Source of the DNA: a virus
Lineage: Duplodnaviria > Caudoviricetes
IMG/VR virus record: IMGVR_UViG_3300030372_003954
Location: 7,211-71,210 of that record
DNA length: 64,000 nucleotides
Reading direction: 5' to 3' (one strand)
Positions 29,057 to 44,348 of the stretch are shown here, piece by piece; position 1 is the first letter of the stretch, and every line of letters starts with the position of its first letter. A program made the position numbers and the translations under genes. Below the pieces are notes generated by a model. It did not search any database, had not been told where the DNA came from, and saw only the letters and a program-made list of their open reading frames with translations.

Positions 29057-29061
29057 GACGT

Positions 29062-29096
29062 AAAACGGCCCCGGTGGACCGACTCTACCGGGGCCG
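29062..29096 (-). terminator. Intrinsic terminator for the leftward early transcript
   Basis: 10-bp stem CGGCCCCGGT/ACCGGGGCCG with TTTT on the minus strand. Confidence 0.65.
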
Positions 29097-29160
29097 CAAC
29101 TGTCAAAGTTGGAGGCAACCAACGACTGACTTGTTTATTTTAACCAAGTTTAGATTTGGT

Positions 29161-29469
29161 TCAATGCTTTTCAATTAAATAAGGGTTTGTTTCGAGTGGC
29201 TCATCAGGTCTGCCTGGTATCCAACCGCGCCGCATGCCACCGTTTTTCGTAGGCCACCTACCGTAAACCATTCCCGACTGATTTGCTTTGTTTCTCAAGC
29301 CTCTCCTGGGAGAAACAATCTCCATAATCGGAGCACCTGTATTCGTAAAGGCTACAACAGAAAGCCTGTCGCCTATAAAGATTTCATAGGAAGCGACGAT
29401 ACTGGAGAGCTTAGGATCCTCTCTCCAGTTTGCCCAATACTTATGCCTCTTCCTTCTCTTCAACCTCAA
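29161..29469 (-). CDS. Hypothetical protein, start uncertain
   Basis: Last ORF before the terminator; basic; no clear RBS. Confidence 0.35.
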   Translation of the reverse strand: MRLKRRKRHKYWANWREDPKLSSIVASYEIFIGDRLSVVAFTNTGAPIMEIVSPRRGLRNKANQSGMVYGRWPTKNGGMRRGWIPGRPDEPLETNPYLIEKH

Positions 29470-29725
29470 AGGTCACCTCCCCATCTGGCCACAAACCGAT
29501 AGCAATTGATGGGCCTCCGCTCAGCTTGATGCTTTGTGCCCACTGGTGCAGGGCAGGGATTGGAGCAGACCTCCAGCTTTTCCTGTCTGAGGGCAGGAGA
29601 TAGGTGCGAATCGTAACCGGATGGAAGTCTGTCTTCCTTGCAAACTCGGCCATTGACTTGCATTCGGAAAGTCTATAAAACTTTTGAGCGGGTGTTTCTC
29701 TTGGTTTAGGTGTAGGTCTTGACAT
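29441..29725 (-). CDS. Putative HTH DNA-binding protein
   Basis: SMAEFARKTDFHPVTIRTYL; start trimmed to the ATG at 29725. Confidence 0.6.
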   Translation of the reverse strand: MSRPTPKPRETPAQKFYRLSECKSMAEFARKTDFHPVTIRTYLLPSDRKSWRSAPIPALHQWAQSIKLSGGPSIAIGLWPDGEVTFEVEEKEEA

Positions 29726-29969
29726 GGTAGTTTCTCTTTTCCCTCGGGTAGATAATGGTGATGTCCCAGAGGATTTAAATGTTGGTGATCGTGTCGTTAT
29801 TGGGGACCGCGTTGCCAAAGTTATTGACCGCGTATGCCCTCACTGCTATCGGTTTGGCCCGCCTTTCCCCGTTCTTTTCGAGATTGCTGGCGGTGATTTC
29901 GAGGGTGTTCGCTGGTGCCCTAAGCATCAGTACCTCACTCCTCGAAGATTTATGTGCGTCAATGATTGA
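29724..29969 (+). CDS. Hypothetical protein with CxxC
   Basis: LNVGDRVVIGDRVAKV..CPHC looks protein-like; start uncertain. Confidence 0.35.
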   Translation: MVVSLFPRVDNGDVPEDLNVGDRVVIGDRVAKVIDRVCPHCYRFGPPFPVLFEIAGGDFEGVRWCPKHQYLTPRRFMCVND

Positions 29970-29992
29970 TTGCCTCCTCGTGTATGCATACA

Positions 29993-30376
29993 CTATACAG
30001 TTTGTCCTTTGTCGCCAAGTGTTGATTTAGCTTTTGCTCCAATGGTTCCGTCTGGTCTGGCGAGTAACCACATCTCATACGGCACTCCTCTCTCTTTCCA
30101 AGACGCAGAAATCTCAATGCACCACTTGTGTACGGCATCGAACGAACCAGAACCTTTGTTCAAGCCAGACAGCAAAGCAACCACACGCACCATTGTGCTG
30201 CTACAATCTGCCGCAAAGTCTTTGAGGACAATGCTATCGCCCACCTCTTGTTGAACCTTGCGCCAGGACAGCCACGTCTGGACTGCGCCATAATGCCAGG
30301 GTGCTGCTGGCACATCTGTTCCGTCAGCGACATTGATCGCTCGGGACTCTGCATTTCTAATAGTGGATCGTCTCAT
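29993..30376 (-). CDS. Hypothetical protein
   Basis: 127-aa ORF with globular-like composition. Confidence 0.5.
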   Translation of the reverse strand: MRRSTIRNAESRAINVADGTDVPAAPWHYGAVQTWLSWRKVQQEVGDSIVLKDFAADCSSTMVRVVALLSGLNKGSGSFDAVHKWCIEISASWKERGVPYEMWLLARPDGTIGAKAKSTLGDKGQTV

Positions 30377-30908
30377 GGGTCGTCGTCTCTGGAAGGGTGA
30401 GCATCAGGATATTGTTAGAGAGATGAAGCTCGACGGCTTCTCTCGTGCGGAAATTACCAGGGCATTGAGAGAGTTCTGTGGGCTGACACAAAAGTCTGCG
30501 ATTGGTTGTTACCTCTCCGTTGTTCCTCGAAGACCATGGCCAATCAAGACTGGTTGGCGCAGGGCATCCGCATCATTCATTGACCAAGCTCTTGACTGGG
30601 ATGACTTTGATGACGAGGTCTTGGAAGACTTGCAGGTCTTGCCGGATGACATCCGTTCATTGTCAGACATGCTCTACAATCAAGATGGACCGTTGTTCCG
30701 TGTTCTTCTTTCGTCATCAGACGCTGCGCTTGCCTATCGTATTTGCAGAAAGACAAGGCGACAGAAGTCGTCTGACTTTGCCAACGTAAGAACGATTGAG
30801 AGAAGAGACACAAAGAAGTCCAGGTCCAGGGCCGTCAAGATTCTTGAGCGATATGCAAAGGCACGAACACAAGAGTCAAGAGGGACCGGCTGGGCACGCA
30901 ACCGTTAG
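30375..30908 (+). CDS. Hypothetical protein, possibly DNA-binding
   Basis: Basic and acidic blocks; GFSRAEITRALREFCGLT; convergent with 30905 gene. Confidence 0.5.
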   Translation: MGRRLWKGEHQDIVREMKLDGFSRAEITRALREFCGLTQKSAIGCYLSVVPRRPWPIKTGWRRASASFIDQALDWDDFDDEVLEDLQVLPDDIRSLSDMLYNQDGPLFRVLLSSSDAALAYRICRKTRRQKSSDFANVRTIERRDTKKSRSRAVKILERYAKARTQESRGTGWARNR

Positions 30909-31303
30909 TTGATAGACATGGGCTTGGGTGGTGAGCATATGCCTGATTCAATCAGGTTCATAGCTGTTCGCCCAAACGATCCTTGCAGTTGCCAAGCAAG
31001 CCCAGTGTCAATCAAGTGTTGCCAAGCACGGATGCGCTCCTCATCACTCCCCTCTACAAAGCCCTCAGCTAAGCCGATGGCATCATGATTTGATAGTCCC
31101 ACAGTTGCCTCCTCTTGGAAACCAGGAATGTTGTTCCCGGTAAGTGTTCGATATGTTTTGTTTTTTTCTATCTCTGCAATCCGAGCAGCCTCTGGTCCAC
31201 TCGACCCGTTAGCCTTTGCTTTCTTCAAAGCACGCATGCCTTCAGCATGCGCCGCCTCCAATGCTTGGCTGTCAATCTGCTGGCGCTCGAACGTCGGGAA
31301 CAT
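30905..31303 (-). CDS. Hypothetical phage protein
   Basis: GAGGAGG RBS; C-terminal AWQHLIDTGLAWQLQGSFGRTA..LIESG motif common in phage early proteins. Confidence 0.7.
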   Translation of the reverse strand: MFPTFERQQIDSQALEAAHAEGMRALKKAKANGSSGPEAARIAEIEKNKTYRTLTGNNIPGFQEEATVGLSNHDAIGLAEGFVEGSDEERIRAWQHLIDTGLAWQLQGSFGRTAMNLIESGICSPPKPMSIN

Positions 31304-31499
31304 CTTTGAGTTCCTCCTCGGTAAAGATGGTTGCACGGATTGCCCAGATAATATCAAGGTTCCGCTGGATGTCTTCATCCAATCGGCTCTTTCCTCTTAG
31401 GAAAGCCACCTGTCTTTGTAGGCCAGTCATTACAGCCAGCCATTGCAAGTTGGTTAGCTCGATGCTGTTCATGTCCTCAAGCTTAAACTCTGTCTTCAT
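31272..31499 (-). CDS. Hypothetical protein
   Basis: GGAGGCGACA-ATG; 75 aa. Confidence 0.65.
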   Translation of the reverse strand: MKTEFKLEDMNSIELTNLQWLAVMTGLQRQVAFLRGKSRLDEDIQRNLDIIWAIRATIFTEEELKDVPDVRAPAD

Positions 31500-31848
31500 T
31501 GTCGCCTCCTTCTGATTCGTACTCTTTTTGCCACTGCTCAAAGATTTTGAAGCAATCAACGCAGCACTGACCGTAGGATGAATCCAAGCCCAGGGAGTGG
31601 ACTTTCTGCACCCCGTACTCACCTACACTCCAGCCTATCCAGTGCGCCCAACTGTATCGGTCGTTCATCGCTGGCAGCCTGCCCGTCTTGCTCATTACCG
31701 CCTCACAGTGCTCACACAAATACGGTTTTACTTTGGGCTCACCCAACAGCAACCTGGCTACCCCTGGGTTTCGGATCGGCCCCATTGAACTCGTCACCTG
31801 TTGAATGACGTAGTCCTGTTGTTCTGGTGTCCTCTTGCGTCGTGGCAT
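31483..31848 (-). CDS. Zinc-finger-like protein
   Basis: CEHC ... CCVDC; GGAGGTGAG RBS. Confidence 0.65.
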   Translation of the reverse strand: MPRRKRTPEQQDYVIQQVTSSMGPIRNPGVARLLLGEPKVKPYLCEHCEAVMSKTGRLPAMNDRYSWAHWIGWSVGEYGVQKVHSLGLDSSYGQCCVDCFKIFEQWQKEYESEGGDNEDRV

Positions 31849-31851
31849 CAC

Positions 31852-32538
31852 TCACCTCCCTGCGGTCAATAGGTCACAGATGTCGCGAAGGGTTTGACGG
31901 ATGTCATCTACCGATGCAACGACTGATTCCCTGAACTCACGAATGCCTGCCATTTCGGTGAGGATCTCGGAGATGTCATCTCGCATATCCTGCACCTCAT
32001 GGCCAATCTGGCTGTAGTTCTCTGCCAACGGCCCACCGGGCTTGGTATCGCTTTCCCGCTGCTCCCGTTGTCTTTTGTTGTACCAAGACTTAAGCGCCCC
32101 TGCCTCTCGATGGTAATCTGAATCGTGCCACAGAATAGTGGCCACCTCCTCCCAAAACTTCATGTTCTTTGGGTTAGTCTTTACGCCAGGGCCAGGGCTC
32201 TTTTCAACTCTGTCCACAGCCCGAAGAATAGCCAGGACCTCATCGTTTGTGTAAGCCTTGTTTGGGCTGCTCTTTTTATCTTTCTTTGCCATGATTGCCT
32301 CCAATCTTTTGTTGTACATAAATTCAACCTCTGACATCTTTTGCTTCATGTCGATGCAATCAATCAAGAAGTCTTCACTCGGTTCGGTCTGTCTTTCCTT
32401 TCTTTGTTTTCGTATATGCTTTTGGTAGTGACTTGAGCACAGGCCCTTCGATCGGTGCGGCTTATTACAGCCCCTCACGCTGCACGTTAGGTGCCTCATG
32501 CTCGGCCTGCCTCGGCCTCGCTTGACTGTCTGTTTCAC
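31852..32538 (-). CDS. Multidomain DNA-binding protein (AT-hook, C3H finger, Myb-like, coiled coil)
   Basis: RGRGRP; CSVRGC...KGLCSSHY; YTNDEVLAIL...WEEVA...L..W; C-terminal heptads. Confidence 0.65.
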   Translation of the reverse strand: MKQTVKRGRGRPSMRHLTCSVRGCNKPHRSKGLCSSHYQKHIRKQRKERQTEPSEDFLIDCIDMKQKMSEVEFMYNKRLEAIMAKKDKKSSPNKAYTNDEVLAILRAVDRVEKSPGPGVKTNPKNMKFWEEVATILWHDSDYHREAGALKSWYNKRQREQRESDTKPGGPLAENYSQIGHEVQDMRDDISEILTEMAGIREFRESVVASVDDIRQTLRDICDLLTAGR

Positions 32539-32759
32539 TACTCCTCCTCACACTGAGTGACCAGACCCCCGTCGCAGGTTCCGCCGTGGTACACCTCGAC
32601 AACCATGGATGGTTCGTCAGCCTCGAACTCGATTGATGAAATCATTTCCTGGGGAGCGCTGTGTAGATGAGCCAGTTCGATAGCCTCCTTCTCCGAGTCG
32701 GCCTGAACCTCCATCACCACAAACACCGTGTGCTCCAGTTCAATATGATAGGTCTTCAT
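32538..32759 (-). CDS. Small acidic early protein
   Basis: V.V.ADSEKEAIELA motif; GAGGTGAG RBS. Confidence 0.7.
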   Translation of the reverse strand: MKTYHIELEHTVFVVMEVQADSEKEAIELAHLHSAPQEMISSIEFEADEPSMVVEVYHGGTCDGGLVTQCEEE

Positions 32760-33079
32760 TACTCACCTCTTTGTTTGTTGTGTTTTGTCCACTTCTGTTG
32801 TGGGTTCCATTCTTCAACGACTTGCTCTTCCATCGACAGTTCATCTTTGTTGAGCAGCGTGACAATCGTTTGCTTGTCAGCCTTAGCAACAGTGCATGCC
32901 TTGATCTGAATGGAGAGGTCATACGCAACCTCTGCCAGCCGAAAGCTCTTGTTGTACTTGCGCTCCTCTTGGACAAAGTCTCGAATCCTCTGGACCGCTC
33001 TTTTTCTGGCTTCAACGTGTGACCTGAAGTACTGGACGTAAGGGTCACAGATGTTCGTCTCAACGCAATAGACTCTCAT
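32759..33079 (-). CDS. Hypothetical protein
   Basis: GGAGGTGAAG RBS; stop/start coupled. Confidence 0.7.
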   Translation of the reverse strand: MRVYCVETNICDPYVQYFRSHVEARKRAVQRIRDFVQEERKYNKSFRLAEVAYDLSIQIKACTVAKADKQTIVTLLNKDELSMEEQVVEEWNPQQKWTKHNKQRGE

Positions 33080-33459
33080 TCTTCACCTCCCTTGTGAGCT
33101 TCTGCCCACCAACATTTTCTTCTCGCCGTTTCCAGCGAGACGGTCTTTAAGGTTTCAAGCTTATAGATTCGCCCGTGGATGTACTGAAAATCCCGGTCCC
33201 AATGCGTCATAAATCCCAAGCCAGGGTCCAAGATTATTCGGTTGTTTACGACGTTCTGAAGGCGGGACCGCATCCGGTTGCGGTCTTTCAAAACACAGGG
33301 GATTTTTACATGCCCGAACTTATACAGGGCAATGAAGATTCCTTGGGAATACCAGCTAACGCGCTTCCAGTGCTCGAATCCAGGCTGCTCGTGCAGCCTG
33401 AACCTCGTAGGTTTGTGCATATCAATCACTGGACAAACACCAACTCGATGGGCTGCCAT
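33076..33459 (-). CDS. Hypothetical protein
   Basis: GGAGGTGAG-TGATG coupling. Confidence 0.7.
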   Translation of the reverse strand: MAAHRVGVCPVIDMHKPTRFRLHEQPGFEHWKRVSWYSQGIFIALYKFGHVKIPCVLKDRNRMRSRLQNVVNNRIILDPGLGFMTHWDRDFQYIHGRIYKLETLKTVSLETARRKCWWAEAHKGGEE

Positions 33460-33998
33460 CACTCACCTCCTTCTTTGCGTGGTTGGAGCTTACGCTCGGG
33501 TGGCGCAGGGGGAGTAGGAAACAAGGCCGCAGCCTCGGATCGAGTCAACTCACGTTGCTCGACTACCAAGCCCTCGCTCTGAACCTTGACCACACCCTTG
33601 GCGTGGATGGGTGGAAGCGAATCTGCCACAAGCTTCTGCACCGTGGTGACTGCCTCAGTCAGTCCACACTCCTGCATGAGGAGCTTGGCTGCATCCTTCT
33701 CCATCTCGTGAGCCTCACGAAACAGCTTGGTAAGGGTACGCACCGAGGACTGCTTGGTGTAGCCTGCATGCTTGAGCAGCAAGGCAATGACCACGGTGTA
33801 GGGGATACGGCTCGTACCCCTGCGGCTGTAGTCCTCAGCCACGTCAACCTGAAGGTTGCCATGGATAAGCACTGGCACGTCATAGCTACCAGGCTCCAGC
33901 TTGGAGCGAGCAGCCTTGAACGTCTTGTCGTTGATAAGTTTACCGAGCGCCACAATAAGCGCATCAGTCATGTCTTCAGGGGAAATAGTTTGTCCCAT
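33459..33998 (-). CDS. Hypothetical protein
   Basis: Start trimmed to MGQTIS after GGAGGCAAC. Confidence 0.7.
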   Translation of the reverse strand: MGQTISPEDMTDALIVALGKLINDKTFKAARSKLEPGSYDVPVLIHGNLQVDVAEDYSRRGTSRIPYTVVIALLLKHAGYTKQSSVRTLTKLFREAHEMEKDAAKLLMQECGLTEAVTTVQKLVADSLPPIHAKGVVKVQSEGLVVEQRELTRSEAAALFPTPPAPPERKLQPRKEGGE

Positions 33999-34046
33999 GT
34001 TTGTTGCCTCCATGGCTACATGGTAACCATATTGTTTATGTTCAGT

Positions 34047-34072
34047 TGTCATCAAATGTCACAGCATGTCAC
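34047..34072. promoter_or_regulatory. Triple TGTCAY box with 10-bp period
   Basis: TGTCAT 34047, TGTCAC 34057, TGTCAC 34067. Confidence 0.7.
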
Positions 34073-34533
34073 ACCATGCTGTCTTCTACGATCATCGGTT
34101 CTGTTTTCTCCTCCATCATGAGTTGTCGGTACATGATAAATGGTTGAAGTTGTATGGTTTTATTCTTTCCTCCGTTGTGATTTATCTGGGTGCATCGAAC
34201 GTCCGGCAGGTTGGTAAGCGGCCCCAGGTTGTCGCAGTTCACATCGAACACATAGTCTGCAAACACATACCGTTCGTTTGAGACTACACCAATGTTGTCT
34301 ACGCTCAACGGTCGCATTCGATCCTGTTGTTGGCAGGACCACACAACCCACCGACTGGCAAGGATTGTTGGACTGGTGAAGCGTGGCTTGATGGATGATT
34401 GGTACAGGTCCACCATGAACCTGAGCAGCATGTCAGCCAAGCTCCTCTCGTCTCCTCCCTGCGGTAGCCAATGGCACACCTTCGCATAGGTTTCTGAACC
34501 CACGTTGAACTGTACCAAGTACACTTTAGTCAT
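34069..34533 (-). CDS. Hypothetical protein
   Basis: 154-aa ORF coupled to the upstream gene. Confidence 0.7.
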   Translation of the reverse strand: MTKVYLVQFNVGSETYAKVCHWLPQGGDERSLADMLLRFMVDLYQSSIKPRFTSPTILASRWVVWSCQQQDRMRPLSVDNIGVVSNERYVFADYVFDVNCDNLGPLTNLPDVRCTQINHNGGKNKTIQLQPFIMYRQLMMEEKTEPMIVEDSMV

Positions 34534-34702
34534 CGCCTTTCGCCTCCCTCATCTCCCGCTGCTTCCGTCGAACAATGGCTTCGATCACTGGCTCGTAAAG
34601 ACTCCTTGCTTTCTCACCAGGCTCCAGCACTTCCTTGGCACACCTCCACTCAATCTTGAATGGTTGGTCCCATGCTGTTGAGTACTTGTTGTCATGGTTC
34701 AT
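34526..34702 (-). CDS. Hypothetical protein (58 aa)
   Basis: ATGA overlap; MNHDNKYSTAWDQ... Confidence 0.6.
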   Translation of the reverse strand: MNHDNKYSTAWDQPFKIEWRCAKEVLEPGEKARSLYEPVIEAIVRRKQREMREAKGDD

Positions 34703-34860
34703 TTGAAACCCCCGTCGTTCATTGATGGGGCCTCTTGCATGGTCTGACTCAACCAATCCATGTAGTCGTTGGTCCGTTCGTAGTTGTCCTGTTGTTCCTT
34801 TGCTTCCTCCCATAGGTCAAGCAATATGCGGAAGGCCTGTCTCATTTGATCGTCAGTCAT
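34699..34860 (-). CDS. Hypothetical protein (53 aa, MTDDQMRQAFRILLDLWEE...)
   Basis: GGAGGTGAG RBS; missed by the ORF track. Confidence 0.65.
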   Translation of the reverse strand: MTDDQMRQAFRILLDLWEEAKEQQDNYERTNDYMDWLSQTMQEAPSMNDGGFK

Positions 34861-35071
34861 CACTCACCTCCCAACGCTCGGCGCTACAGTTCCCGGCGTA
34901 CACCTCCAACAAGTCGGCAGTGTACCCAACCTCAACACAAAGGCTTTCGTGGCGCCCCTCAACCGTGACCAGTTCCTGAGCGCGGTCCATGGCTTCCTCT
35001 GGGGTGTCGGCTTCTACCCTCACCCGGATGTACATTTCAGCCTCAAACTCAACGACGTACTTCGTTCCCAT
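34853..35071 (-). CDS. Small acidic early protein
   Basis: V.VEADTPEEAMDRA motif, similar to 32538..32759. Confidence 0.7.
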   Translation of the reverse strand: MGTKYVVEFEAEMYIRVRVEADTPEEAMDRAQELVTVEGRHESLCVEVGYTADLLEVYAGNCSAERWEVSDD

Positions 35072-35370
35072 CACTCACCCCCTTTGGCTTCGGCCACTGC
35101 TTCGTTTGCAGCCTGAATAATCTCCGAGAGATTGGGTGCCTGGTGTACGTTGTTGGCTTGGAGATCATCGAACCAGTCGGATGTCTTTGACTCCGCCCAC
35201 TCCTGAAGTCTCTCGACCACAGCCAAGAGATTCGGTGCTGATGCAATGAGCCGTGCCTCTGCGTCCGTGCCGTACACGTCAGCTATCATGGGTAGGTAGT
35301 CCCTGGAACGCTTTATGACATGGTGGTTCTCTTGCCTCTTTTCGAGACTCCATGGGTATTTGCCTTTCAT
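35071..35370 (-). CDS. Hypothetical phage protein
   Basis: AEARLIASAPNLL motif; GGAGGCAACC RBS. Confidence 0.75.
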   Translation of the reverse strand: MKGKYPWSLEKRQENHHVIKRSRDYLPMIADVYGTDAEARLIASAPNLLAVVERLQEWAESKTSDWFDDLQANNVHQAPNLSEIIQAANEAVAEAKGGE

Positions 35371-35393
35371 TGGTTGCCTCCTTGGCGTGTTGG

Positions 35394-36149
35394 TTAGATG
35401 TCTAAGTCTTCGATTGAAGCCCGCTTCAGTTCAACGGACCTCCATCCTGATTTCTTCTTGCTCTTGATTGGTTGCCGCAAGTGTCGGTGCTTGGGTCCGT
35501 GGTTGGGGAATCCAATCACTGGCCCAGGTCGAGAGCCGTCACACAACAGACAGTCATTGCAGGTCAAGCTTTTGCCCATGTCCTTTGCCACCATGGCAGG
35601 ACAGACAATCCCCTTGGCCCCTCCTGGCGTTGTGAACTCGCGCTCGGTGTGGGTGGGGGGTAGCACTACCGTTGCCCTGAACCCTGCCTCCAGCGCCTCG
35701 TCAACCTCGCTGATGTCATCGCAAGACGCCATGAACACACCGGCCCACTGCTTGTTCTCTCGCCACATGTGAATGTAGCCGACTGGTGCAAGACCAAAGG
35801 CCTTCACGGCCTTGAGTGCTTTCTGCATGTACTTATCGGTCATTGCAGTCAGGTCACCCGTGCCTGTAAACCGAGCCATCTTTGCAACGCGCTTGCTCTC
35901 CTTCAGTGCTCGCTTCAGGCTGTAGTCCTTGCCTCTCTTGGATGCATTCATGATTGACGAGTGGCCGATTGCTGGCGTGCCGAACTGAGCATAGCAAGTC
36001 TTGTCCTCCAGTTGCTTGCATCCGATGCAGCTTGACAGACTCTCCTCTCGGGTCCGTCCGACGTACATGGTGGGCACTGGCCCGGTCTTCTCGTTGGATG
36101 TGGTCGGTGTCCACATCGCTGCTTTATCAGGTAGTTTCTCTCTATTCAT
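35394..36149 (-). CDS. GP88/DUF7227-like Cys-cluster protein
   Basis: SNEKTG...SCIGC...CYA; RFTGTGD; GYIH.W; VCPA...TCNDCLLC...IGFPNHG; start after GGAGGCAACC. Confidence 0.65.
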   Translation of the reverse strand: MNREKLPDKAAMWTPTTSNEKTGPVPTMYVGRTREESLSSCIGCKQLEDKTCYAQFGTPAIGHSSIMNASKRGKDYSLKRALKESKRVAKMARFTGTGDLTAMTDKYMQKALKAVKAFGLAPVGYIHMWRENKQWAGVFMASCDDISEVDEALEAGFRATVVLPPTHTEREFTTPGGAKGIVCPAMVAKDMGKSLTCNDCLLCDGSRPGPVIGFPNHGPKHRHLRQPIKSKKKSGWRSVELKRASIEDLDI

Positions 36150-36169
36150 TGGTTGCCTCCGTTGAATGG

Positions 36170-36601
36170 TTAGGATTTTTTGTTGGGTCGGTCGAGGTTG
36201 TTGTAGATTACAAACAGGTACACACAAGTCGAATGCCAAGGGGCACGAGGGTCATTGCACTCTGTCCACTTCTCGTAGTACGAACCCCAACGGCTGATGT
36301 CCATGGGCAGGCGCTCCTCGTCACTAAGGGCAGTCCACTCCGGTATGCTGTATCCAACGTCGCCACTCGGAGTTTCAACCCACGTCGTGTGAGCTTTGAA
36401 CTCAAACCCACAAGCCTTGAGTTCTTCGTGCAGTTCTCCGACCACATCCAATTGGGTCTTGTCGTTGAATGAATACCCCTGGTCGCGAACACCAAGTGTA
36501 ATCGTGACGCTTCCGTTGGGGTGAACCATGAGTGAGTAGACCTCAGTCCCAGGGTTCAATAAGCTCGCAATCACTTGCTCAGGTTTCTTCTCAGCTTCCA
36601 T
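36170..36601 (-). CDS. Hypothetical protein
   Basis: Start after GGAGGCAACT; 143 aa. Confidence 0.7.
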   Translation of the reverse strand: MEAEKKPEQVIASLLNPGTEVYSLMVHPNGSVTITLGVRDQGYSFNDKTQLDVVGELHEELKACGFEFKAHTTWVETPSGDVGYSIPEWTALSDEERLPMDISRWGSYYEKWTECNDPRAPWHSTCVYLFVIYNNLDRPNKKS

Positions 36602-36648
36602 AGTTGCCTCCAATGTTATTGTATGTAGCACGGCTACACTTATTGAGT

Positions 36649-36664
36649 TGTCACGATATGTCAC
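36649..36664. promoter_or_regulatory. TGTCAC-N4-TGTCAC box
   Basis: TGTCACgataTGTCAC in a short intergenic gap. Confidence 0.7.
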
Positions 36665-36666
36665 AG

Positions 36667-36912
36667 CTAATCTGTTCGAGTGACTAAGACCGTTCCGTTG
36701 GGGTCAATCACCGTTGTGATTGTCCACCCTGGTGACGGTCTCAGTGTGTCACTGCCTTGCTCTTTTACCCACTTGAGGATCATCACAAGGCACACGTTGC
36801 CGCTGTCATCAGGGACAGGGATAGTCCAGTTGATGACCTCCCTGCCAATGATGACCTCGTTGGCTTTCACAAGACTCTTTCGGACTGCTTCCTGAACTTG
36901 GTTCTCACCCAT
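36667..36912 (-). CDS. Hypothetical protein
   Basis: GAGGTGA RBS; overlaps the upstream stop. Confidence 0.65.
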   Translation of the reverse strand: MGENQVQEAVRKSLVKANEVIIGREVINWTIPVPDDSGNVCLVMILKWVKEQGSDTLRPSPGWTITTVIDPNGTVLVTRTD

Positions 36913-37252
36913 AGATCACCTCACCAAAGCAAGCCTGTTGGATGATAGCGTCCGCAATGTCGGAGCCAACATCGCTTGACTCACCTTTGAGCACCAACTG
37001 ATCGATGGCGCTCATGTAGTAGCCGTTCAATGGTCGCTTCAAGAACAACTCACCGATTGCTCGCTCGACGTCTGAGGGTGTGATGAAGAAGTCTGTAGAC
37101 TCTCTTTCGTCACCGTACTCAGGGTCCGTGAAGTGGCAGCCATCATCCTCTGAGCACATGTAGGATGCCCAGTATTTGATGCCGTAGCCAGCCATCTCAA
37201 TGATGCCGTCGTAGTCATCGCGTTGAAGAATAAAATCAATCTCAAGTCTCAT
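36905..37252 (-). CDS. Acidic hypothetical phage protein
   Basis: C-terminal D.ADAIIQQACFGEVIYG motif; GAGGCAACT RBS. Confidence 0.75.
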   Translation of the reverse strand: MRLEIDFILQRDDYDGIIEMAGYGIKYWASYMCSEDDGCHFTDPEYGDERESTDFFITPSDVERAIGELFLKRPLNGYYMSAIDQLVLKGESSDVGSDIADAIIQQACFGEVIYG

Positions 37253-37261
37253 AGTTGCCTC

Positions 37262-37615
37262 TTAGTTGTTGAGTTGGTTGGGGATTGGTTGAACAAAGAC
37301 AAGGTCGGGGAACTTGATTGCCCAGAAGTCCTCGTCATAGAATCCATAGGGATCAAGCTGCTCGTACTCACGGGCCAGGAAGATTGCTCGTTCCAGGTCC
37401 TTCCTCAAGCAAGCGGTGTATGCCTCACGGAGTAGGGCGATTTCTTCCCTGGTTGCAGGCACCCCGCCGCAGGTTTTCATTAGGTCGTTGGGGTCCAGCT
37501 TCTGCTTGAGCTTCCCTTCGATCCAATACTCAAGCCTTGCAAGTGGTTCGACTTGATACTCTCCGTATGGATCTTGTTCGTCAGATAGCGGATGAAGGTT
37601 GATTACTTCCATCAT
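37262..37615 (-). CDS. Hypothetical protein
   Basis: GAGAGGCAACC RBS. Confidence 0.7.
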   Translation of the reverse strand: MMEVINLHPLSDEQDPYGEYQVEPLARLEYWIEGKLKQKLDPNDLMKTCGGVPATREEIALLREAYTACLRKDLERAIFLAREYEQLDPYGFYDEDFWAIKFPDLVFVQPIPNQLNN

Positions 37616-37789
37616 GGTGGTTGCCTCTCGGTGTTGTTGTTGTGTCGGTAGCTTTGTGCTTCCTGTTTTAGAAGACGCCGCCAGTCGGTCTTGGCGGACA
37701 GAAAAAGTTTATTTTATTTTCGGCAGGCTCTCAGTCCCTCATTGACAGCACCGTTGTTAGCAGTGCGACAGCAATGAAAGCATAGGCCA

Positions 37790-38155
37790 TCACGTCCCAA
37801 ACCGGGTGGGCTTGGCTTTCCAAGGGGGTCTCTATCATTTGGTATTGGATCTTATTCATTGACCATTGGATCTTTATATTATAATTATAATTTAATTATC
37901 TACTAATAGCTTTTGAGAGTAGAGGGGGGTCTGGGGGGAGAAGAGAACTTTAGATTTCGTTCCGCCTCTCCCTTTGGACGTTGACCAAACAGGAACCGAA
38001 TGATTCCAGCCGGTTGGCCGCCGACCTTGGGACGCTTGGTTTGTTGATGGGACGCTGACCGCATCACGTTGGGACGTTTTGTTTTCAACATCATAAGGAT
38101 TCCAACTGTTTGCGTTTGTCTTTTGGGACGCTCTCACCTTTACGTTGGGACGCTT
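37790..38155. repeat. Putative replication origin: iterons plus AT-rich unwinding tract
   Basis: TGGGACG at 38028, 38048, 38070, 38124, 38146; variant at 37974; inverted copy at 37793; 27 consecutive A/T at 37873-37899. Confidence 0.7.
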
Positions 38156-38222
38156 TGTTTTCCTTCAGCCAGTGAGCCAGTGCCCTGGCTACGATTTGCT
38201 CAAGTGGTGATGGCTTAGTCAT
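38091..38222 (-). CDS. Possible 43-aa protein running into the iteron array
   Basis: GGAGGTGAG RBS; ATGA overlap. Confidence 0.45.
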   Translation of the reverse strand: MTKPSPLEQIVARALAHWLKENKASQRKGESVPKDKRKQLESL

Positions 38223-38389
38223 TCCTCACCTCCAACCTGCATGTCGTGGATGTCGATGATTTCTGTTTCGGTAATCTGCTCGTGAGCAAACGAATAGTCT
38301 GCCTCACTGACGATTTCCTGCACAGAATCCTCACTCTGTCCTGGCTTCAGGTTTAGTTTGACCAGGACGTAAACGTAGTTGTCTTTCAT
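38219..38389 (-). CDS. Small acidic protein (56 aa)
   Basis: GGAGGTGAGG RBS; MKDNYVYVLVKLNL...; missed by the ORF track. Confidence 0.65.
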   Translation of the reverse strand: MKDNYVYVLVKLNLKPGQSEDSVQEIVSEADYSFAHEQITETEIIDIHDMQVGGEE

Positions 38390-38730
38390 TCCTCACCTCC
38401 TTCGGCTGACAAGAAGTGCGGCAGTCGGTATGAATGAGTGACGAACCAGGCTGTGTCGTGGTTGGTCCATCCTTTGAGGAAGGCCTTACCCCACAGCATG
38501 AGGGCGGCCTGGTCTGAGTCCACGTTGTGGACCACTTCAAACCTGGCCACGGGGCTTGGCTCTCCATCGACAGGCCACGTCGTGTAGCATTGTTGCAGTT
38601 GCTCGCACCCGATTTGGTCGGGCAGGTTCTCAAGCTCTGCGATGTAAAGGTAGGACACCTTGTCTACCCACTCGCTTGGCGCGTTCTCTTGTCGCAGTCC
38701 AACGCCGCCGGTTCCTTTGTATCTTGTCAT
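38386..38730 (-). CDS. Hypothetical protein
   Basis: GAGGCAACC RBS. Confidence 0.7.
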   Translation of the reverse strand: MTRYKGTGGVGLRQENAPSEWVDKVSYLYIAELENLPDQIGCEQLQQCYTTWPVDGEPSPVARFEVVHNVDSDQAALMLWGKAFLKGWTNHDTAWFVTHSYRLPHFLSAEGGEE

Positions 38731-38754
38731 GGTTGCCTCGTTGTTGTTGTTAGT

Positions 38755-38928
38755 GGTGGGGGTAGTGAGAGTTAGCTTTCACCGGCTTTCGCCTCCGGCA
38801 TGCCCTCTTACGACGCTACCCGCGCCGACCTCTCACGAGGTCCGGGGTTGTATTTTGCCGCAGCTACTCGGCTTCTTCATCAGGGCACCACCCTGATTAG
38901 CCGGGGCGCTATCCCGGCGCGGATTGTT
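38755..38928 (-). ncRNA. Structured intergenic RNA with hammerhead-like core nucleotides
   Basis: CCGCGCCG/CGGCGCGG helix, AUCAGGG/CCCUGAU hairpin, GACCUC-GUGA-GAGGUC, GGC-GAAA-GCC, CUGAUGA. Confidence 0.5.
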
Positions 38929-39471
38929 TCAGTCAAGCCGACATGGCATGACCACTGCACTCACGAGCCTCTCCATGTTCTCGACAAGGATTGGTCCGAG
39001 TGGATCGGTTGGCTTCTGCTTGATGGTGATGGGTCCGGTGCCCACCCACTTGAGTGCAGCGTTGAGCAGTACAGCGTTCACGCCACACTTCTCATGGTCC
39101 AGCACATGAAGATCCCAGCAGTGTTGTTTGATGGTTTCAGGGTTGATGCCTACTGTCTGCTTTTCCCATGAGGGTCCAGCAGCCGAGTGGACATCGGCTG
39201 TGGTGTCAAGCCATTCATCGTGGCGCTCGCTTCCAATCACGTCGAGTGCAATCTGACCGTTGGTCACTGCAATGCGAGGTGCATTGAATCCTTTGGCAAG
39301 CATCAGTCCTCCGATGGCTGTGCCGTTGAAGGTGAATCGCTTCAGGCCCAGGTCCCTGGGTTCCCAAATCTTTCCGCTTTCCCGCTGAACGATAAGCTCC
39401 TCGGCTGCTTGTCGGAATGCTCGGGCCATTGCGGTCCCGGCTCGGTTGATTTTTTGATTGTGGTTGAACAT
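38929..39471 (-). CDS. Early protein with a beta-clamp-like C-terminal motif
   Basis: NAVLLNAAL...ITI...DPLGPI...AVVMPCR; start after GAGAGGCAACC. Confidence 0.55.
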   Translation of the reverse strand: MFNHNQKINRAGTAMARAFRQAAEELIVQRESGKIWEPRDLGLKRFTFNGTAIGGLMLAKGFNAPRIAVTNGQIALDVIGSERHDEWLDTTADVHSAAGPSWEKQTVGINPETIKQHCWDLHVLDHEKCGVNAVLLNAALKWVGTGPITIKQKPTDPLGPILVENMERLVSAVVMPCRLD

Positions 39472-39522
39472 GGTTGCCTCTCTTGTTGGGGGTTGAATGC
39501 CCATTGCTGGGCGTGGTCTCGT

Positions 39523-39587
39523 GTCTAAGCCAGGGTTGGAGTGAGAGCAGGGTCAAGCCCTACCCTCACCCCTGGCCGCCGTTAGAC
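39523..39587 (-). other. Rod-like hairpin, RNase III-site candidate
   Basis: GUCUAA/UUAGAC, GCCAGGG/CCCUGGC, GUGAG/CUCAC, GUAGGG/CCCUGC; 5-nt loop. Confidence 0.55.
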
Positions 39588-39980
39588 GGCCTTCTCCGCG
39601 CTTTCCCTGACAGCCGACACGGGATGTCGGTATGCTTTGAGTTCTTCTATCTCTTCATCGTCAAGCTCCGTGATGCATTCATCACAGATGCAGGTCACTT
39701 GCTCGTTGGGTCGTCCACGTCTGACATTTTCCACAGACAGGGCGACGTACTCGAACCACACTTTGGTGCCGCATGAGTCGCAGACTACGCCGCAGTCGTC
39801 GCAGATGTATGACCAGTCGGCACCTGGAGTGTACGTTGAGGGCTTGCTGTCGCTGATTTCCTCCTCGGTTAGGTGCTTGTCACACTCCTCGCACCGGGGG
39901 TGATCCTCGGGCCAGGGTCGTTCGTATGCGTCAGCGAATCGAGCCCAGGTGTATTCGTCGCAGTAGTCTCGCTCCATCAT
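39582..39980 (-). CDS. Zinc-finger protein
   Basis: CEEC, ICDDC..VCDSC, CICDEC; GGAGGCAACC RBS. Confidence 0.7.
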   Translation of the reverse strand: MMERDYCDEYTWARFADAYERPWPEDHPRCEECDKHLTEEEISDSKPSTYTPGADWSYICDDCGVVCDSCGTKVWFEYVALSVENVRRGRPNEQVTCICDECITELDDEEIEELKAYRHPVSAVRESAEKAV

Positions 39981-40033
39981 GGTTGCCTCCAGTGTTGGCT
40001 GTTTGTTTATACTGTCGCAGTGTGACTATGTCT

Positions 40034-40049
40034 TGTCACGAAATGTCAC
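40034..40049. promoter_or_regulatory. TGTCAC-N4-TGTCAC box
   Basis: TGTCACgaaaTGTCAC in the intergenic gap. Confidence 0.7.
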
Positions 40050-40052
40050 GGG

Positions 40053-40466
40053 TCAGTAGCCCATGGCTTGAGCATACTGGTCGTAGTGCTCGCGGGATTC
40101 CTCCTCCCACTCCGGCCAGCCTGGGTCGTCTTCAAACTGCTGTTCACAGTATGCGACTTTTCTGACGTTGCCTTTCCAGTCAACCTCCTCGTCTTCCACC
40201 CAGGTCTCACCGACGAGACGTCGGCAGGTCCTCGCTTTTATCTTGGACCAGGGGCAGAACTGCACACTCTGCGAACCAATGTCGCCGTCGCAGTCCCTTC
40301 CCCAGGTAGACCAGGTCCGGGTGATGCCTTGCTCGCATGCTTCCCATGACACATGCTGCGCGTCGTATCCCTCCTCGCTTGGCTCCCATTTACGGTGTTC
40401 GAGGATTTCCCCCGGCTCGATGTCGAGGACAACGTCTCCCCCGTTGATGTATTCTCTGAATCTCAT
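40053..40466 (-). CDS. Acidic hypothetical protein
   Basis: Start trimmed to MRFREYING via ATGA overlap. Confidence 0.65.
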   Translation of the reverse strand: MRFREYINGGDVVLDIEPGEILEHRKWEPSEEGYDAQHVSWEACEQGITRTWSTWGRDCDGDIGSQSVQFCPWSKIKARTCRRLVGETWVEDEEVDWKGNVRKVAYCEQQFEDDPGWPEWEEESREHYDQYAQAMGY

Positions 40467-40573
40467 TGGTTCCTTCTTGTGGTTGGGCATTGCTTGCATG
40501 CTTTGCCGTTGTCGAGGTGGCCCCAGTCGCCGCAGTGTTTGCACCGGGGTTTGTTTAGTGGTTGGCGTTTCAT
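40463..40573 (-). CDS. 36-aa zinc-ribbon microprotein (CKHC...CKQC)
   Basis: GAGGGGTGA RBS; stop overlaps the next start. Confidence 0.6.
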   Translation of the reverse strand: MKRQPLNKPRCKHCGDWGHLDNGKACKQCPTTRRNQ

Positions 40574-40578
40574 TGGTT

Positions 40579-40689
40579 TCACCCCTCTTCTTCTTCGTCT
40601 TCACATGAGGGACACGGGCTATCGTGTGCATCTTTGAAATACTCACCATGCTTTTCGCACTGTCCAATGCCGATGCCTTTGTCTGCCAT
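40579..40689 (-). CDS. 36-aa zinc-ribbon microprotein (CEKH...CPSC)
   Basis: GGAGGTGAG-TGATG coupling. Confidence 0.65.
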   Translation of the reverse strand: MADKGIGIGQCEKHGEYFKDAHDSPCPSCEDEEEEG

Positions 40690-40958
40690 CACTCACCTCC
40701 TTCAATGATTCGAGGATCGGGATCTGACCTAACCGCCATCTCCAATCGCGAGGTCGTTGCCTCTGCCACCCGAACCTCAACCGCTTCCCCCTCCATCATC
40801 TGGACGTAAAGGTCTGCCATCTTGGCAGCGTGGATGATATGGCGACGTGCATCCTCTACCCCCTCTCGGGTCAGGTGTGGGAGAAGGTTCAGTAGCTCGC
40901 GCACTGAGTCCTCCCAGGTCATGGATACGTCGATGTAGCGTGTGTTTTCTTCACTCAT
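40689..40958 (-). CDS. Hypothetical protein
   Basis: GAGGCAACC RBS. Confidence 0.7.
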   Translation of the reverse strand: MSEENTRYIDVSMTWEDSVRELLNLLPHLTREGVEDARRHIIHAAKMADLYVQMMEGEAVEVRVAEATTSRLEMAVRSDPDPRIIEGGE

Positions 40959-40974
40959 GGTTGCCTCGCTTAGG

Positions 40975-41283
40975 TTAGCCAGCGTTGAAGCTGGCAAGGA
41001 TTACAGGGTCTTCGGGTGTGGAGTCAGCGACTCCGATCTTGGTCACCTCAAGTTGTTCCGGGTCGTCAACCCAGCACCGGCTCGGGCCGCATGGTTCAGT
41101 GCTCCCGTCGTGGTAGACAAACACCCAAGTGGTGTGGCCCAAGCGGTCATCCCACCTGTGGTAGGGGCCGGGGTAGGTGTAGCGGGCTTCGAGTTCATCG
41201 GTCGCAATGACGACGAACGAATCGTATGAATCGTAGCCACCGGGGTCGGTCCTTTTCACGAGGTAGATATTCTTGCTGCTCAT
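40975..41283 (-). CDS. Hypothetical phage protein
   Basis: YDSYDSFVVIATDELEAR...; KIGVA...VILASFNAG; GAGGCAACC RBS. Confidence 0.75.
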   Translation of the reverse strand: MSSKNIYLVKRTDPGGYDSYDSFVVIATDELEARYTYPGPYHRWDDRLGHTTWVFVYHDGSTEPCGPSRCWVDDPEQLEVTKIGVADSTPEDPVILASFNAG

Positions 41284-41298
41284 GGTTGCCTCGGGTTG

Positions 41299-41382
41299 CG
41301 GATCCTATTAGATCCTATTTACTCTCTACTCAATAAAGGATCTATATGGTGTTTGTGTACGTACATATAGATCCTTGGATCA
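41299..41382. other. GATC-dense AT-rich spacer
   Basis: GATC at 41301, 41311, 41339, 41370, 41378; GATCCTATT direct repeat. Confidence 0.5.
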
Positions 41383-41395
41383 ATAGAGACTAAGC

Positions 41396-41452
41396 TCAGG
41401 TAAGGGTTAGGGGTAGCGTCAGTGCATAGAGCACACTTAGTGCGATTGCCAT
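41396..41452 (-). CDS. 18-aa hydrophobic peptide MAIALSVLYALTLPLTLT
   Basis: Preceded by the consensus GGAGGCAACCT RBS. Confidence 0.45.
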   Translation of the reverse strand: MAIALSVLYALTLPLTLT

Positions 41453-41470
41453 AGGTTGCCTCCGATGGGG

Positions 41471-41683
41471 TTAGTGGTTGTCGGTTGTGTTGAGTCGATA
41501 TGCGGCATAGGCTGACAGTGCAGCCCAGCAGGCAAAGGCCAGGTCACAGCGTGGACCCCAGTTTTTTGCCCATGGCATGCCGGGGTCAATCCAGACATTG
41601 ATGGACATGATCACGATGACGGGGAAAAACGCCATGCCGACGTAGAATGCGCTAAACCTTGCACAGGTCAAGAGTTTGTTCAC
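41471..41683 (-). CDS. Small membrane protein with two hydrophobic segments
   Basis: GTG start after GAGGCAACC; FYVGMAFFPVIVIMSINVWI and LAFACWAALSAYAAY. Confidence 0.65.
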   Translation of the reverse strand: MNKLLTCARFSAFYVGMAFFPVIVIMSINVWIDPGMPWAKNWGPRCDLAFACWAALSAYAAYRLNTTDNH

Positions 41684-41757
41684 GGTTGCCTCACTTGTAT
41701 TCGGGAACCCCACCACCCCTGCGGGCAGTGGACGCACAGGGCCTAATCCCACCCTGC

Positions 41758-41986: not shown

Positions 41987-42002
41987 TTGGGCGGGTTGTG
42001 TA

Positions 42003-42182
42003 TTAGCTGCGGATGAAGAGGTTGGTTGCGGGGTCATGCGTGAAGCCCTCGTCTACCAGGAAAGACTCCGCTTGCGTGCCTGTGTCGAATGACTCGCCCA
42101 CGCCGTGATGCGTGTCGGCATTGATAATGTGGAACAGGCCCTCGGTTTCGAGGATGTCAACGATTTTGATGAAAGTTGCCAT
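42003..42182 (-). CDS. Hypothetical protein (59 aa, MATFIKIVDILETEG...)
   Basis: AAGGA RBS; first ORF after the structured leader; missed by the ORF track. Confidence 0.65.
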   Translation of the reverse strand: MATFIKIVDILETEGLFHIINADTHHGVGESFDTGTQAESFLVDEGFTHDPATNLFIRS

Positions 42183-42258
42183 GATTGTCGGTCCTTTGTC
42201 AGGGGTTGTTGGCTGTCAGGCCGGAACAATCCACGCGCGGAATGCCCGTGCATTGATT

Positions 42259-42900
42259 AGGCCCGTCAGAACCCCCCACGAATGGGGGGCCTGATGGTTT
42301 GCCTCCTTTGTTAGGTTGTCCCCCCCACGGTCTCTCAGGGTGCCAGACCGGCGCGTGGCCTACTCGGACTTGGCGCGGGTCGCCCGTCATCGGGGCGTGG
42401 GGGTCGTTCACTGCTACACGTCCAGGCTATTCGGGGGTCTTGGCAAGATCGCTCGCCCCACGGATCGGTCTCTTGCTTGCGGTTCCTTGGCGCGGGGTCC
42501 CCTTGCAGGCACCCACCCTCGCTACTTGGCAAGCTCAACTTCAGTCCACCTACGTCCCCCCGCTAAGGGGGCTCCCCTGTTGATCCAGGGGGTGGGCTTT
42601 CACTCCTAACTCAGTCCGGTCTCCCCGCTCGAAAGCGGCACCCGGCTTGACGTGTCCAGATTCTATGTGGTGATGTCAAAGATCGTTCCTATCCTCCCCC
42701 GGTGGGGGCCTGGTTTGCCGCGTTTGAATGCGATCCCCCCAGGTCTGGGGCCCTATCCCAAGCACTGAACCTATAGAAAGGGGTGCCGCCTGGTAGGCTA
42801 CCTGTCCTGCGCCTCTCATTAGAGGTGGGGAACCGGCTGGGGTGTGGGTCATGTAGATAGTTGAAAGAGCGTTTGCCGTTGGGGTGTTTCCCTCCTGGCC
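42259..42900 (-). ncRNA. Candidate large (~640 nt) highly structured ncRNA
   Basis: No credible ORF; nested long-range helices and many hairpins; upstream sigma70-like promoter; terminal UUCG hairpin. Confidence 0.6.
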
Positions 42901-42905
42901 CTGAC

Positions 42906-42934
42906 AATGTAAACCAGGTGATTACACTTGCAAA
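42906..42934 (-). promoter_or_regulatory. Sigma70-like promoter
   Basis: TTTGCA-17 bp-TACATT (or TTGCAA-16 bp-TACATT) on the minus strand. Confidence 0.55.
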
Positions 42935-43230
42935 CCGATGGACGGGAAGCCTGTTTGAATGAAACCTCAATAAAAACAAGGGTTTACAGCTATTCGATAG
43001 ACTGCGGGCATGGGGTGTTTCTAAATGGTTGGAATCATTGAATAAACAAAAGCAAAATAAAATGCATTTTTATTTGATGTTTTTGGGGGGTCAGGCTCCC
43101 TGTCCATCGTTTTTTATTTTTCTTGCTGTATTCGTGTTGCTTACATTGGTGGGGCTTGTTACTTGATATTCAAGACAACCGATTGACCACCAACCCCAAC
43201 CCAGGACCGACCGAATGGAGCAGCAAAAAT

Positions 43231-43420
43231 GAAGGGCCCCCGATAGAGGGGGGGGACCTGTAGAGATAGAGAGCCCCCAATAGAGGAGGGGGGCCATTGA
43301 CGGGGACCGACCCCGATCGCTTTCCCGCGCACCGCCGCCCCGGTGGGGGGGGTGGGGTGGTCTGTCTGGGCCCCATGGGGGGGGAGGGGTAGCCAGAAAT
43401 GTGAAGGCCGAGTGGTGGGG
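43231..43420. other. G-run-rich non-coding segment, possible genome terminus or packaging signal
   Basis: Several G4-G8 runs; GCCCCC(G/A)ATAGAGG direct repeat at 43236 and 43273. Confidence 0.4.
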
Positions 43421-43475
43421 GGGGTAACCCAAAATGATGAAGGATATAGAGGAGTAGCAGAGAGAGAAGAGAGAG

Positions 43476-44348
43476 TTATGAGCGGTGACGCATCGCACTC
43501 ATCAGTTCAAGCCACTCAGGCATCTTCACCAGCTTCAAACCACCATCGAGTATCGGCAAAGGCTCTGGAGAGTAATGAGCGTGCGTAATCGTCGACACCC
43601 AAGCAATAGGACCATTGCTTCTACGCTTAGGCTTCTGTAGACGCCTTCTGAGCGAGAAGTTTAGCGGACCCCAAGCAGGACAGTTTGTATGCCAAGGATG
43701 AGCCATTCTGCCGATTGTTCCACCATGCTTTACCAGCCAGTCGCGACCAATTGCATTGCGGACGCTGTCTCTGCTTACACACCAAGCTCCTGTGTGCCTT
43801 TTGTTGGACTTATCCATAAGGTTATCCATACCTCTCCAATATCTACAAGTAGAGCAGTTCTTGCCTTGCAGACGGTTGGAGTCGAGCGTGTCTAACGGGT
43901 CATTGGACGAGATTTGCCACCATACGACACCAATAGAGCGCCAACGACACTTCTTAGCTTGCCTTGGACGCAAACCAGCAGCCCATCGACGAACGTCGTA
44001 GGCACGCTCTTTGTCGCCAAGCTTGACCATGACACGCACCAAAGGTCCGACAATCTTCTCAACGTAGCGCTCTTTAGACAAAGTCATCGGTGGTGCAGTG
44101 ATGATTCTGCGTGCATTGACGACCTCATAGACCTCAAGGCCAAACTGTTGAGCGAGTTTAGCGTCAGGCCACATACCAAGAACAGAGACGAAGTCCTTCG
44201 TCCCTGCTTTGGTCTCAAGCTCATCTAAGAACTTGTGAATGACATCGTGGTGGTCAGCACAGACCCAGTCAACATAAGGTCTGTCGTGTCGAGTCCTTTG
44301 GTTAGCGAACTCTTTTGCCCACTTACGAATCTTCAGGCGCTTCTTCAT
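43476..44348 (-). CDS. Hypothetical basic protein with CxxC
   Basis: 290-aa ORF; CSTCRYW...WC...CPAW. Confidence 0.65.
   Translation of the reverse strand: MKKRLKIRKWAKEFANQRTRHDRPYVDWVCADHHDVIHKFLDELETKAGTKDFVSVLGMWPDAKLAQQFGLEVYEVVNARRIITAPPMTLSKERYVEKIVGPLVRVMVKLGDKERAYDVRRWAAGLRPRQAKKCRWRSIGVVWWQISSNDPLDTLDSNRLQGKNCSTCRYWRGMDNLMDKSNKRHTGAWCVSRDSVRNAIGRDWLVKHGGTIGRMAHPWHTNCPAWGPLNFSLRRRLQKPKRRSNGPIAWVSTITHAHYSPEPLPILDGGLKLVKMPEWLELMSAMRHRS

Follow-up and report, generated by a model that had tools for sequence, protein, structure and literature searches.

Few natural RNAs exceed 600 nt and have an elaborate, conserved fold; the known ones are the ribosomal RNAs, the large ribozymes, OLE, ROOL and GOLLD. 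ROOL and GOLLD are phage-encoded, multi-domain, non-coding RNAs of 600–900 nt. ROOL is found in phages and prophages, often beside tRNA islands, and its linker, as well as the less conserved 5' region of GOLLD, varies in length (PMC12286853). Here, we analysed 64,000 nt of DNA (the window, to which all coordinates refer) from a 71,210-bp IMG/VR virus record with terminal repeats. At 42211–42900, the minus strand of the window very probably encodes a non-coding RNA that is conserved and folded and belongs to a new family. The best explanation of the observations, with a probability of about 0.6, is a gene for an uncatalogued large structured RNA that acts as a folded particle rather than as a message.

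The window was compared with known RNA families using Rfam 15. At gathering thresholds the only match in the window was one tRNA. A search of 42000–43200 at E≤10 returned nothing relevant, only chance-level fragments of eukaryotic lncRNAs (E≥1.4), and eight homologous loci gave no match at E≤1. The covariance models of ROOL (RF03087) and GOLLD (RF01998) matched neither the window nor the eight homologous loci, and no match was obtained with the Rfam models of OLE, raiA, HEARO/omega RNAs, group I/II introns, RNase P, tmRNA and 6S RNA. Insofar as covariance models can show, ROOL, GOLLD, OLE, raiA, introns, RNase P and similar RNAs can thus be ruled out. An earlier note on this DNA had proposed a ROOL-like or new structural RNA and had suggested a likeness to ROOL segments. 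The suggested likeness found no support in Rfam; the RNA is new, and it is ROOL-like only in belonging to the same loose category. A self-splicing intron was likewise rejected, given the AT-rich intergenic tract and promoter-like site upstream and the separate 59-aa ORF downstream.

The marine RNA can be placed in the loose category of large ornate phage RNAs, outside both the ROOL and the GOLLD family (PMC12286853). It shares with them its phage origin, its size, its multi-domain and non-coding character, and a region of very variable length among homologues (here an insertion termed V1, there the ROOL linker and the GOLLD 5' region). It differs from both in that neither model matches its sequence or structure, and in that it lies inside an early operon, lacks a terminator of its own and occurs in a narrow marine phage clade. 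It is not located beside tRNA genes; the only tRNA (Asn, 28981–29056) lies 13 kb away, no tRNA gene was found in the eight homologous loci, and neither the RNA nor its V1 insertion contains tRNA-like modules. ROOL self-assembles into an RNA-only nanocage.

The source phage encodes a terminase, SSB, Dam, a DnaB-type helicase and RecE/RecT. A close cultured relative was not found, as the terminase and the helicase showed at most 25% and 39% identity, respectively, to those of cultured phages. The genes for SSB, Dam and an orphan protein of 290 aa (43476–44348) are located upstream of the RNA, on the same minus strand. The 290-aa protein carries a conserved C-x2-C...W-C motif, and Pfam and PHROG offered no informative family for it or for 25 early ORFs. 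A protein atlas search for partner proteins gave weak matches only. The 290-aa protein was rejected as a dedicated partner of the RNA, since it is also encoded by a lineage without the RNA. On the plus strand, a 4222-aa ORF without any PHROG match (736–13404) is probably a giant virion or injected protein; the idea of an N4-like phage, which this ORF had prompted, was unsupported for the same lack of a PHROG match.

The homologue search started from the 290-aa protein, which led to four related viral contigs whose stretch downstream of that gene was 65–80% identical to the window. A two-motif pattern retrieved nine more copies from marine metagenomes, and the members of the 290-aa protein cluster yielded three more. 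The total came to 13 full-length copies from about nine lineages, with identities of 51–99%, always in the same slot and all marine where the source was named. A sensitive blastn search of the GenBank phage collection gave no match. Scanning one genome per prokaryote species with the pattern produced 21 matches, all of them chance and none with an nhmmer match, so that there was no sign of a bacterial or prophage copy. A second, independent pattern applied to viral contigs returned the known records and chance matches that were rejected by the covariance model R2. Both R2 and a second model, R1 (domain F, described below), detected a single copy in the genome of the window. All carriers identified to date belong to one small set of marine phages that have not been cultivated.

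A sister lineage (G001/G002), whose terminase and 290-aa homologue show 79% and 34% identity, respectively, has no copy of the RNA by BLAST or by models R1 and R2. The RNA is therefore dispensable for this type of phage and an accessory of a narrow clade. The corresponding slot in the sister lineage (L132, ∼3840–4560, minus strand of the locus) is occupied by ∼700 nt of unrelated sequence that is poor in ORFs and contains a CGTCTAACAG tandem repeat and GCGTAACGTTACGC-type palindromes; this sequence may be a different non-coding element. Among the carriers, L087 encodes a 290-aa protein identical to that of the L004 lineage, while its RNA is 67% identical to that of L004 and 74% to that of the window. 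Given this mismatch in kinship, the RNA locus seems to have been exchanged among lineages by recombination.

The coding potential of the element was assessed in all homologues. Each of the six frames contained 3–18 stops in 13/13 copies, and no ORF was common to different lineages. In the window itself, the GC-rich stretch holds no ORF of more than 96 codons in any frame of the ORF list. The earlier description of an ORF-free, GC-rich region was thus confirmed, with a GC content of 0.60–0.67 in the RNA region compared to ∼0.40 in the AT-rich tract just upstream. Insertions and deletions of one or two bases are common among the copies, and whole hairpin domains have been gained or lost between lineages. 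Gene callers did place an 81-aa ORF in the L087 copy and a 93-aa ORF on the opposite strand of the L106 copy, which would suit a locus encoding one or more small proteins on either strand. With stops in every frame of every copy, frequent small and hairpin-sized indels, and a ribosome-binding-site-like word, GAGGCAACC, that no start codon follows, this reading is hardly credible.

Covariation is the main evidence for the fold. With ten sequences, RNAalifold proposed 146 pairs, 49 of which showed compensatory changes. Two parts were then aligned separately, namely A4 (window 42662–42205, the 3' two-thirds) and A5 (window 42902–42668, the 5' domain). In A4, 90.5% of the cells of the 125 pairs were paired, compared to 35–45% when the partners were slid by one to three columns, and both sides had changed at 41/125 pairs compared to 6–12 when slid. 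In A5, with 63 pairs, 87.4% of cells were paired compared to 40–51% when slid, with changes on both sides at 19/63 pairs compared to 3–10. The observed values were reached in 0/500 shuffles for either alignment.

As a negative control, the adjacent coding gene, that of the 290-aa protein, was put through the same procedure, using its copies at the same ten loci. In this gene, RNAalifold 'paired' 92% of the cells, so the percentage of paired cells means little on its own. Double changes occurred at 21/222 pairs in the control and at 62/189 pairs in the RNA. Helices with at least two covarying pairs and no more than 5% mismatches numbered seven in the RNA and none in the coding control. The earlier note had proposed a collection of homologues and a covariation check; this yielded 13 copies with compensatory pairs above the slide, shuffle and coding-gene controls. 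Compensatory pairing above controls and the lack of a conserved ORF, the generic marks of a structured non-coding RNA, were both observed.

The controls also bear on whether the region has any functional structure at all, or is conserved non-coding spacer DNA or the remains of a degenerate gene, its apparent helices arising from C- and G-runs and from fitting by RNAalifold. The minimum free energy of the single sequence (-250.8 kcal/mol) was no better than that of dinucleotide shuffles (z = +0.31), which the earlier note had named among the outcomes that would refute the RNA. We consider this test uninformative and did not accept it as a refutation, because a sequence rich in C-runs and G-runs folds equally strongly after shuffling. 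The structure conservation index reached only 0.51 in the 3' part; in the 5' domain, at 0.34, it was no better than in the coding control (0.36). These low values are partly due to the misalignment of the divergent clade by MAFFT. Many helices are indeed pairs of C-runs and G-runs with alternative partners, and only about nine lineages are represented. An exhaustive covariation scan for pseudoknots was swamped by such pairings and gave nothing convincing. Together with the 'paired' cells and double changes of the coding gene, these points favour a region without structure. Against it, the best helices are free of homopolymer runs (B-P1, B-P2, GCUUGC/GCAAGC, the inner F helix and the 3' hairpin, all described below) and show 4–8 compensatory pairs with almost no mismatches, a level that no helix of the coding control reached, and the signal collapsed when partners were slid. 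A structureless region is accordingly a very improbable account.

The functional strand was identified from non-canonical pairs. When read as the minus strand, the predicted pairs comprise 232 G-U and 82 A-C combinations, and the best-supported helices have ratios of 18:0, 19:1, 16:0 and 11:0. This excess shows that the functional strand is the minus strand, as had been claimed. Pairing could instead serve the DNA, as single-stranded hairpins at a replication origin, a packaging site or a promoter; the AT-rich tract just upstream and the position near the SSB gene and the switch between divergent gene blocks would fit such a role. G-U pairs are frequent on one strand only, however, long-range nested helices span 240 nt, and the promoter points into the element, which makes a function at the DNA level highly improbable.

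The structured body measures ∼690 nt in the window and up to ∼880 nt in lineages with V1, as derived from covariation among the 13 homologues. Near its 5' end, a near-invariant single-stranded word, ACGCUCUUUCA (42862–42872), was seen in alignments A3 and A5. RNAalifold offered GAGGC at 42305, AGGAGUG at 42606 and GAGCG at ∼42455 as candidate partners for it, and none of these pairings covaries because both sides are invariant. The first 5' domain, A (42757–42841), is multi-branched with six helices, A-P1 (42841–38/42760–57), A-P2 (42837–33/42804–00), A-P3, A-P5 and the hairpins A-P4 (42825–21/42816–12) and A-P6 (42787–79/42772–61). A-P1, A-P2 and A-P4 each have three pairs changed on both sides. 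Domain B (42696–42743) follows, with B-P1 (42743–39/42713–09) and the hairpins B-P2 (42735–30/42721–17) and B-P3 (42707–05/42698–96). The 5 bp of B-P1 were paired in 100% of cells and 4/5 were compensatory (e.g. CG:5 UA:5 AU:3), while B-P2 was paired in 98.5% of cells, also with 4/5 compensatory.

Downstream of domain B, the alignments place a near-invariant GAUCUUUGACAU together with the insertion point of V1 at 42662–42684. V1 adds 130–190 nt after GAUCUUUGACAU in eight copies (L087, L106, L054, L004, L064, L003, L067 and L098) and is absent in the window. Its first hairpin (GGCU-loop-AGCC) contains 11 G-U and 0 A-C pairs.

The central domain (42412–42658) is closed by a long-range helix, 42658–49/42422–12. 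Within it are located the helices CCGG/CCGG (42647–42/42619–13), GGAGUG/CGAUCC (42606–01/42467–62), GGGGC/GACCCC (42460–55/42439–32) and GCUUGC/GCAAGC (42534–29/42480–75), the last with 97% of cells paired and 5/6 compensatory, as well as a GCCUGCAAGG hairpin (42518–42489). The GCCGC-UUUCGA-GCGGC hairpin (42638–42625) and the CCACC/GGUGG junction holding two hairpins (42598–42543), both of which had been folded by hand previously, are conserved among the homologues. The junction helix has four compensatory pairs and the central closing helix has two. The most divergent clade (L003, L067 and L098) lacks the CCACC/GGUGG junction and has ∼70 extra nucleotides elsewhere, and it has kept the closing helix.

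Several other elements of the hand-made fold did not hold across the homologues. The long-range helix CCGGUUCCCC/GGGGAGACCGG is paired in only 70% of cells, and a local alternative covaries in its place: where the 5' strand changes (UCGA, CAGG), the local partner changes along with it. The actual long-range closure of the central domain is the helix 42658–49/42422–12 given above. The GGCACCC/GGGUGCC pairing showed no covariation and has a C-A mismatch at one position in 7/13 copies; a local hairpin is at least equal to it. Of the four minus-strand occurrences of the recurring word GCCAAG, which were confirmed, only the last is invariant, and only as CCAAG. GGCAAAC is only partly conserved across the copies.

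Domain F (42322–42403) forms the 3' domain. Its outer helix, CCCCCACG/CGUGGGGG (42403–396/42329–322), is conserved as proposed and has three compensatory pairs. The inner helix of 11–13 bp (42385–73/42354–39) was paired in 94.9% of cells, with 5/11 pairs compensatory, and the domain also contains a small hairpin (42369–57) and the invariant CCAAG. The equally conserved C6-UUCG-G6 hairpin (42288–42273) is extended by UCAGGC/GUUCUGA to 42266–42294; it was paired in 92–96% of cells with four compensatory pairs, and its core has 18 G-U and 0 A-C pairs. The element had previously been taken to end at 42259. It extends ∼50 nt further, to ∼42211, and ends in a covarying hairpin of 18–20 bp with a small internal loop (42217–42265; 18 pairs, 8 compensatory, 94.3% paired).

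T7-type phages carry RNase III processing hairpins between their early genes. The last hairpin of the marine RNA resembles these in its length of ∼20 bp, its small internal loop and its position where the RNA borders on an ORF; it has no sequence similarity to them. By this analogy, it may be an RNase III-type processing site; it may instead be an operator.

A sigma70-type promoter-like site was located just upstream of the RNA at 42906–42933 on the minus strand. The TTGCAA-N16-TACATT arrangement that the earlier note had reported is present, with the -35 hexamer at 42933–42928, a 16-nt spacer, the -10 hexamer at 42911–42906 and a predicted start near 42900. The window copy scores 8/12, which is under the threshold of the scan tool. 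The hexamers keep their position in the homologues (TAGACA/TTCGAC for -35 and TACAAT/TACTTA for -10), and those of relatives are nearer to consensus, for example TAGACA-N16-TACAAT. The proposal of a new large structured non-coding RNA behind a sigma70-like promoter is thus backed by comparative evidence, namely covariation, conserved hexamers and the coding-gene control.

Further upstream, an AT-rich hairpin, AAAUAAAA-AUGCA-UUUUAUUU, followed by a U-rich tract, was read from the minus strand at 43041–43075. This stretch is conserved in L003, L004 and L005, and the consensus terminator scan did not call it; the hairpin and tract may weakly terminate transcripts of the SSB-Dam-290aa operon upstream. 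On the plus strand, 43085–43121 reads as an intrinsic terminator (a G+C hairpin, then a T run) pointing away from the RNA; it was noticed through a chance alignment with an L20 leader, and there is no evident plus-strand gene for it to end. The adjoining stretch, 43091–43498, is GC-rich (0.68) and G-skewed, and its sole long ORF (135 codons, minus strand) translates into Pro/Gly-rich nonsense. In related phages, this slot holds an opposite-strand gene of 126–135 aa (M[ND]L[IL]LAFA...SPRQRARCA...) that is missing in the window. A further non-coding element, or else a gene that has decayed, may lie here.

The first downstream ORF (59 aa, 42003–42182, minus strand) was recognised from the ORF list, the sequence and gene calls in relatives. 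It begins ∼30 nt past the end of the RNA with its own start codon. The terminator scan called nothing between the RNA and this ORF; its single call was upstream, at 43254–43237. Since no terminator intervenes, the RNA has, formally at least, the position of a leader in an early operon, and its description as heading the early transcript would hold in a positional sense.

Toward its 3' end the RNA carries a ribosome-binding-site look-alike, GAGGCAAACC (42296–42305, minus strand), that is followed by AUC instead of a start codon. The word GAGGCAAC occurs 22 times in the window where 2.7 occurrences are expected, and it stands 1–4 nt ahead of ATG or GTG at ≥17 minus-strand genes. These early and middle genes (23894–41692, e.g. 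41292, 39989, 38739 and 37261) have a uniform translation-start region of the form GAGGCAAC(C)-ATG. In the RNA, GAGGC.AACC is invariant in 13/13 copies; the next triplet is AUC, UUC, AAU, GAC, AGC or UAU, never a start codon, and a very stable hairpin follows. No other feature of the RNA hints at a partner; the resemblance of this look-alike to the start sites suggests, as candidates, the 30S subunit or a factor recognising the uniform start sites of the phage. Alternatively, the look-alike would pair with the invariant 5' word ACGCUCUUU, a pairing that RNAalifold proposed and that cannot covary.

Shine-Dalgarno-like words without a start codon are also known from leaders, where they act as STAB-SD or ribosome standby elements (B. 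subtilis cryIIIA, E. coli tisB). The marine RNA resembles these in that its invariant Shine-Dalgarno-plus-spacer word equals the start consensus of the phage, lacks a start codon and lies upstream of stable hairpins and a real ORF. It differs in scale, as those elements measure tens of nucleotides and the word is here a small part of a 690-nt conserved fold. The RNA could be a 5' leader that acts purely in cis on the early operon downstream, with no separate existence, modulating stability, translation (e.g. as a standby site via GAGGCAACC) or terminator read-through. Such a leader is favoured by the location of the look-alike ∼120 nt upstream of the real start, and by the ORF that follows the last hairpin after ∼30 nt, in the window and in relatives, without an intervening terminator; the missing terminator suits a leader as well as it suits a particle. 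A conserved multi-domain structure of ∼690 nt, however, far exceeds known bacterial and phage leaders, and lineages have retained the RNA while differing in the gene downstream of it (L004/L064 and L005/L106/L054 compared to the window). We regard a leader acting only in cis as possible, if rather unlikely, and prefer a particle acting in trans.

For the folded particle, the following course of events is proposed. Host RNA polymerase would initiate at the conserved sigma70-type promoter near 42900, and the RNA would be made as the first part of a transcript continuing into the small early ORFs, because no terminator follows it. The RNA would fold into largely independent domains: two 5' domains, the central domain with its long-range closure, the 3' domain and two terminal hairpins. 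The long 3' hairpin would then probably release or stabilise the RNA, which we infer acts as a folded particle, alone or with a partner, and not as a message. The invariant start-less look-alike suggests, as a possible partner, the 30S subunit or a factor recognising the translation-start regions of the phage.

A bolder proposal, which we consider a speculative long shot, is that the RNA represents a new ornate phage RNA class, a free particle of early infection that docks to the 30S subunit or to a start-site factor (serving the GAGGCAACC-AUG sites) through its start-less copy and possibly self-assembles like ROOL and GOLLD. If this were true, the docking RNA would redirect or protect translation of the early messages of the phage. 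The narrow distribution of the RNA is a weakness. Its modular fold with lineage-variable domains, the look-alike that points to a testable partner and its location at the start of an early transcription unit provide useful handles. Each of the few known natural RNAs of this size and complexity has revealed new biology or RNA architecture, and a further, unrelated class in marine phages would add to the growing sign that phages commonly carry large structured RNAs.
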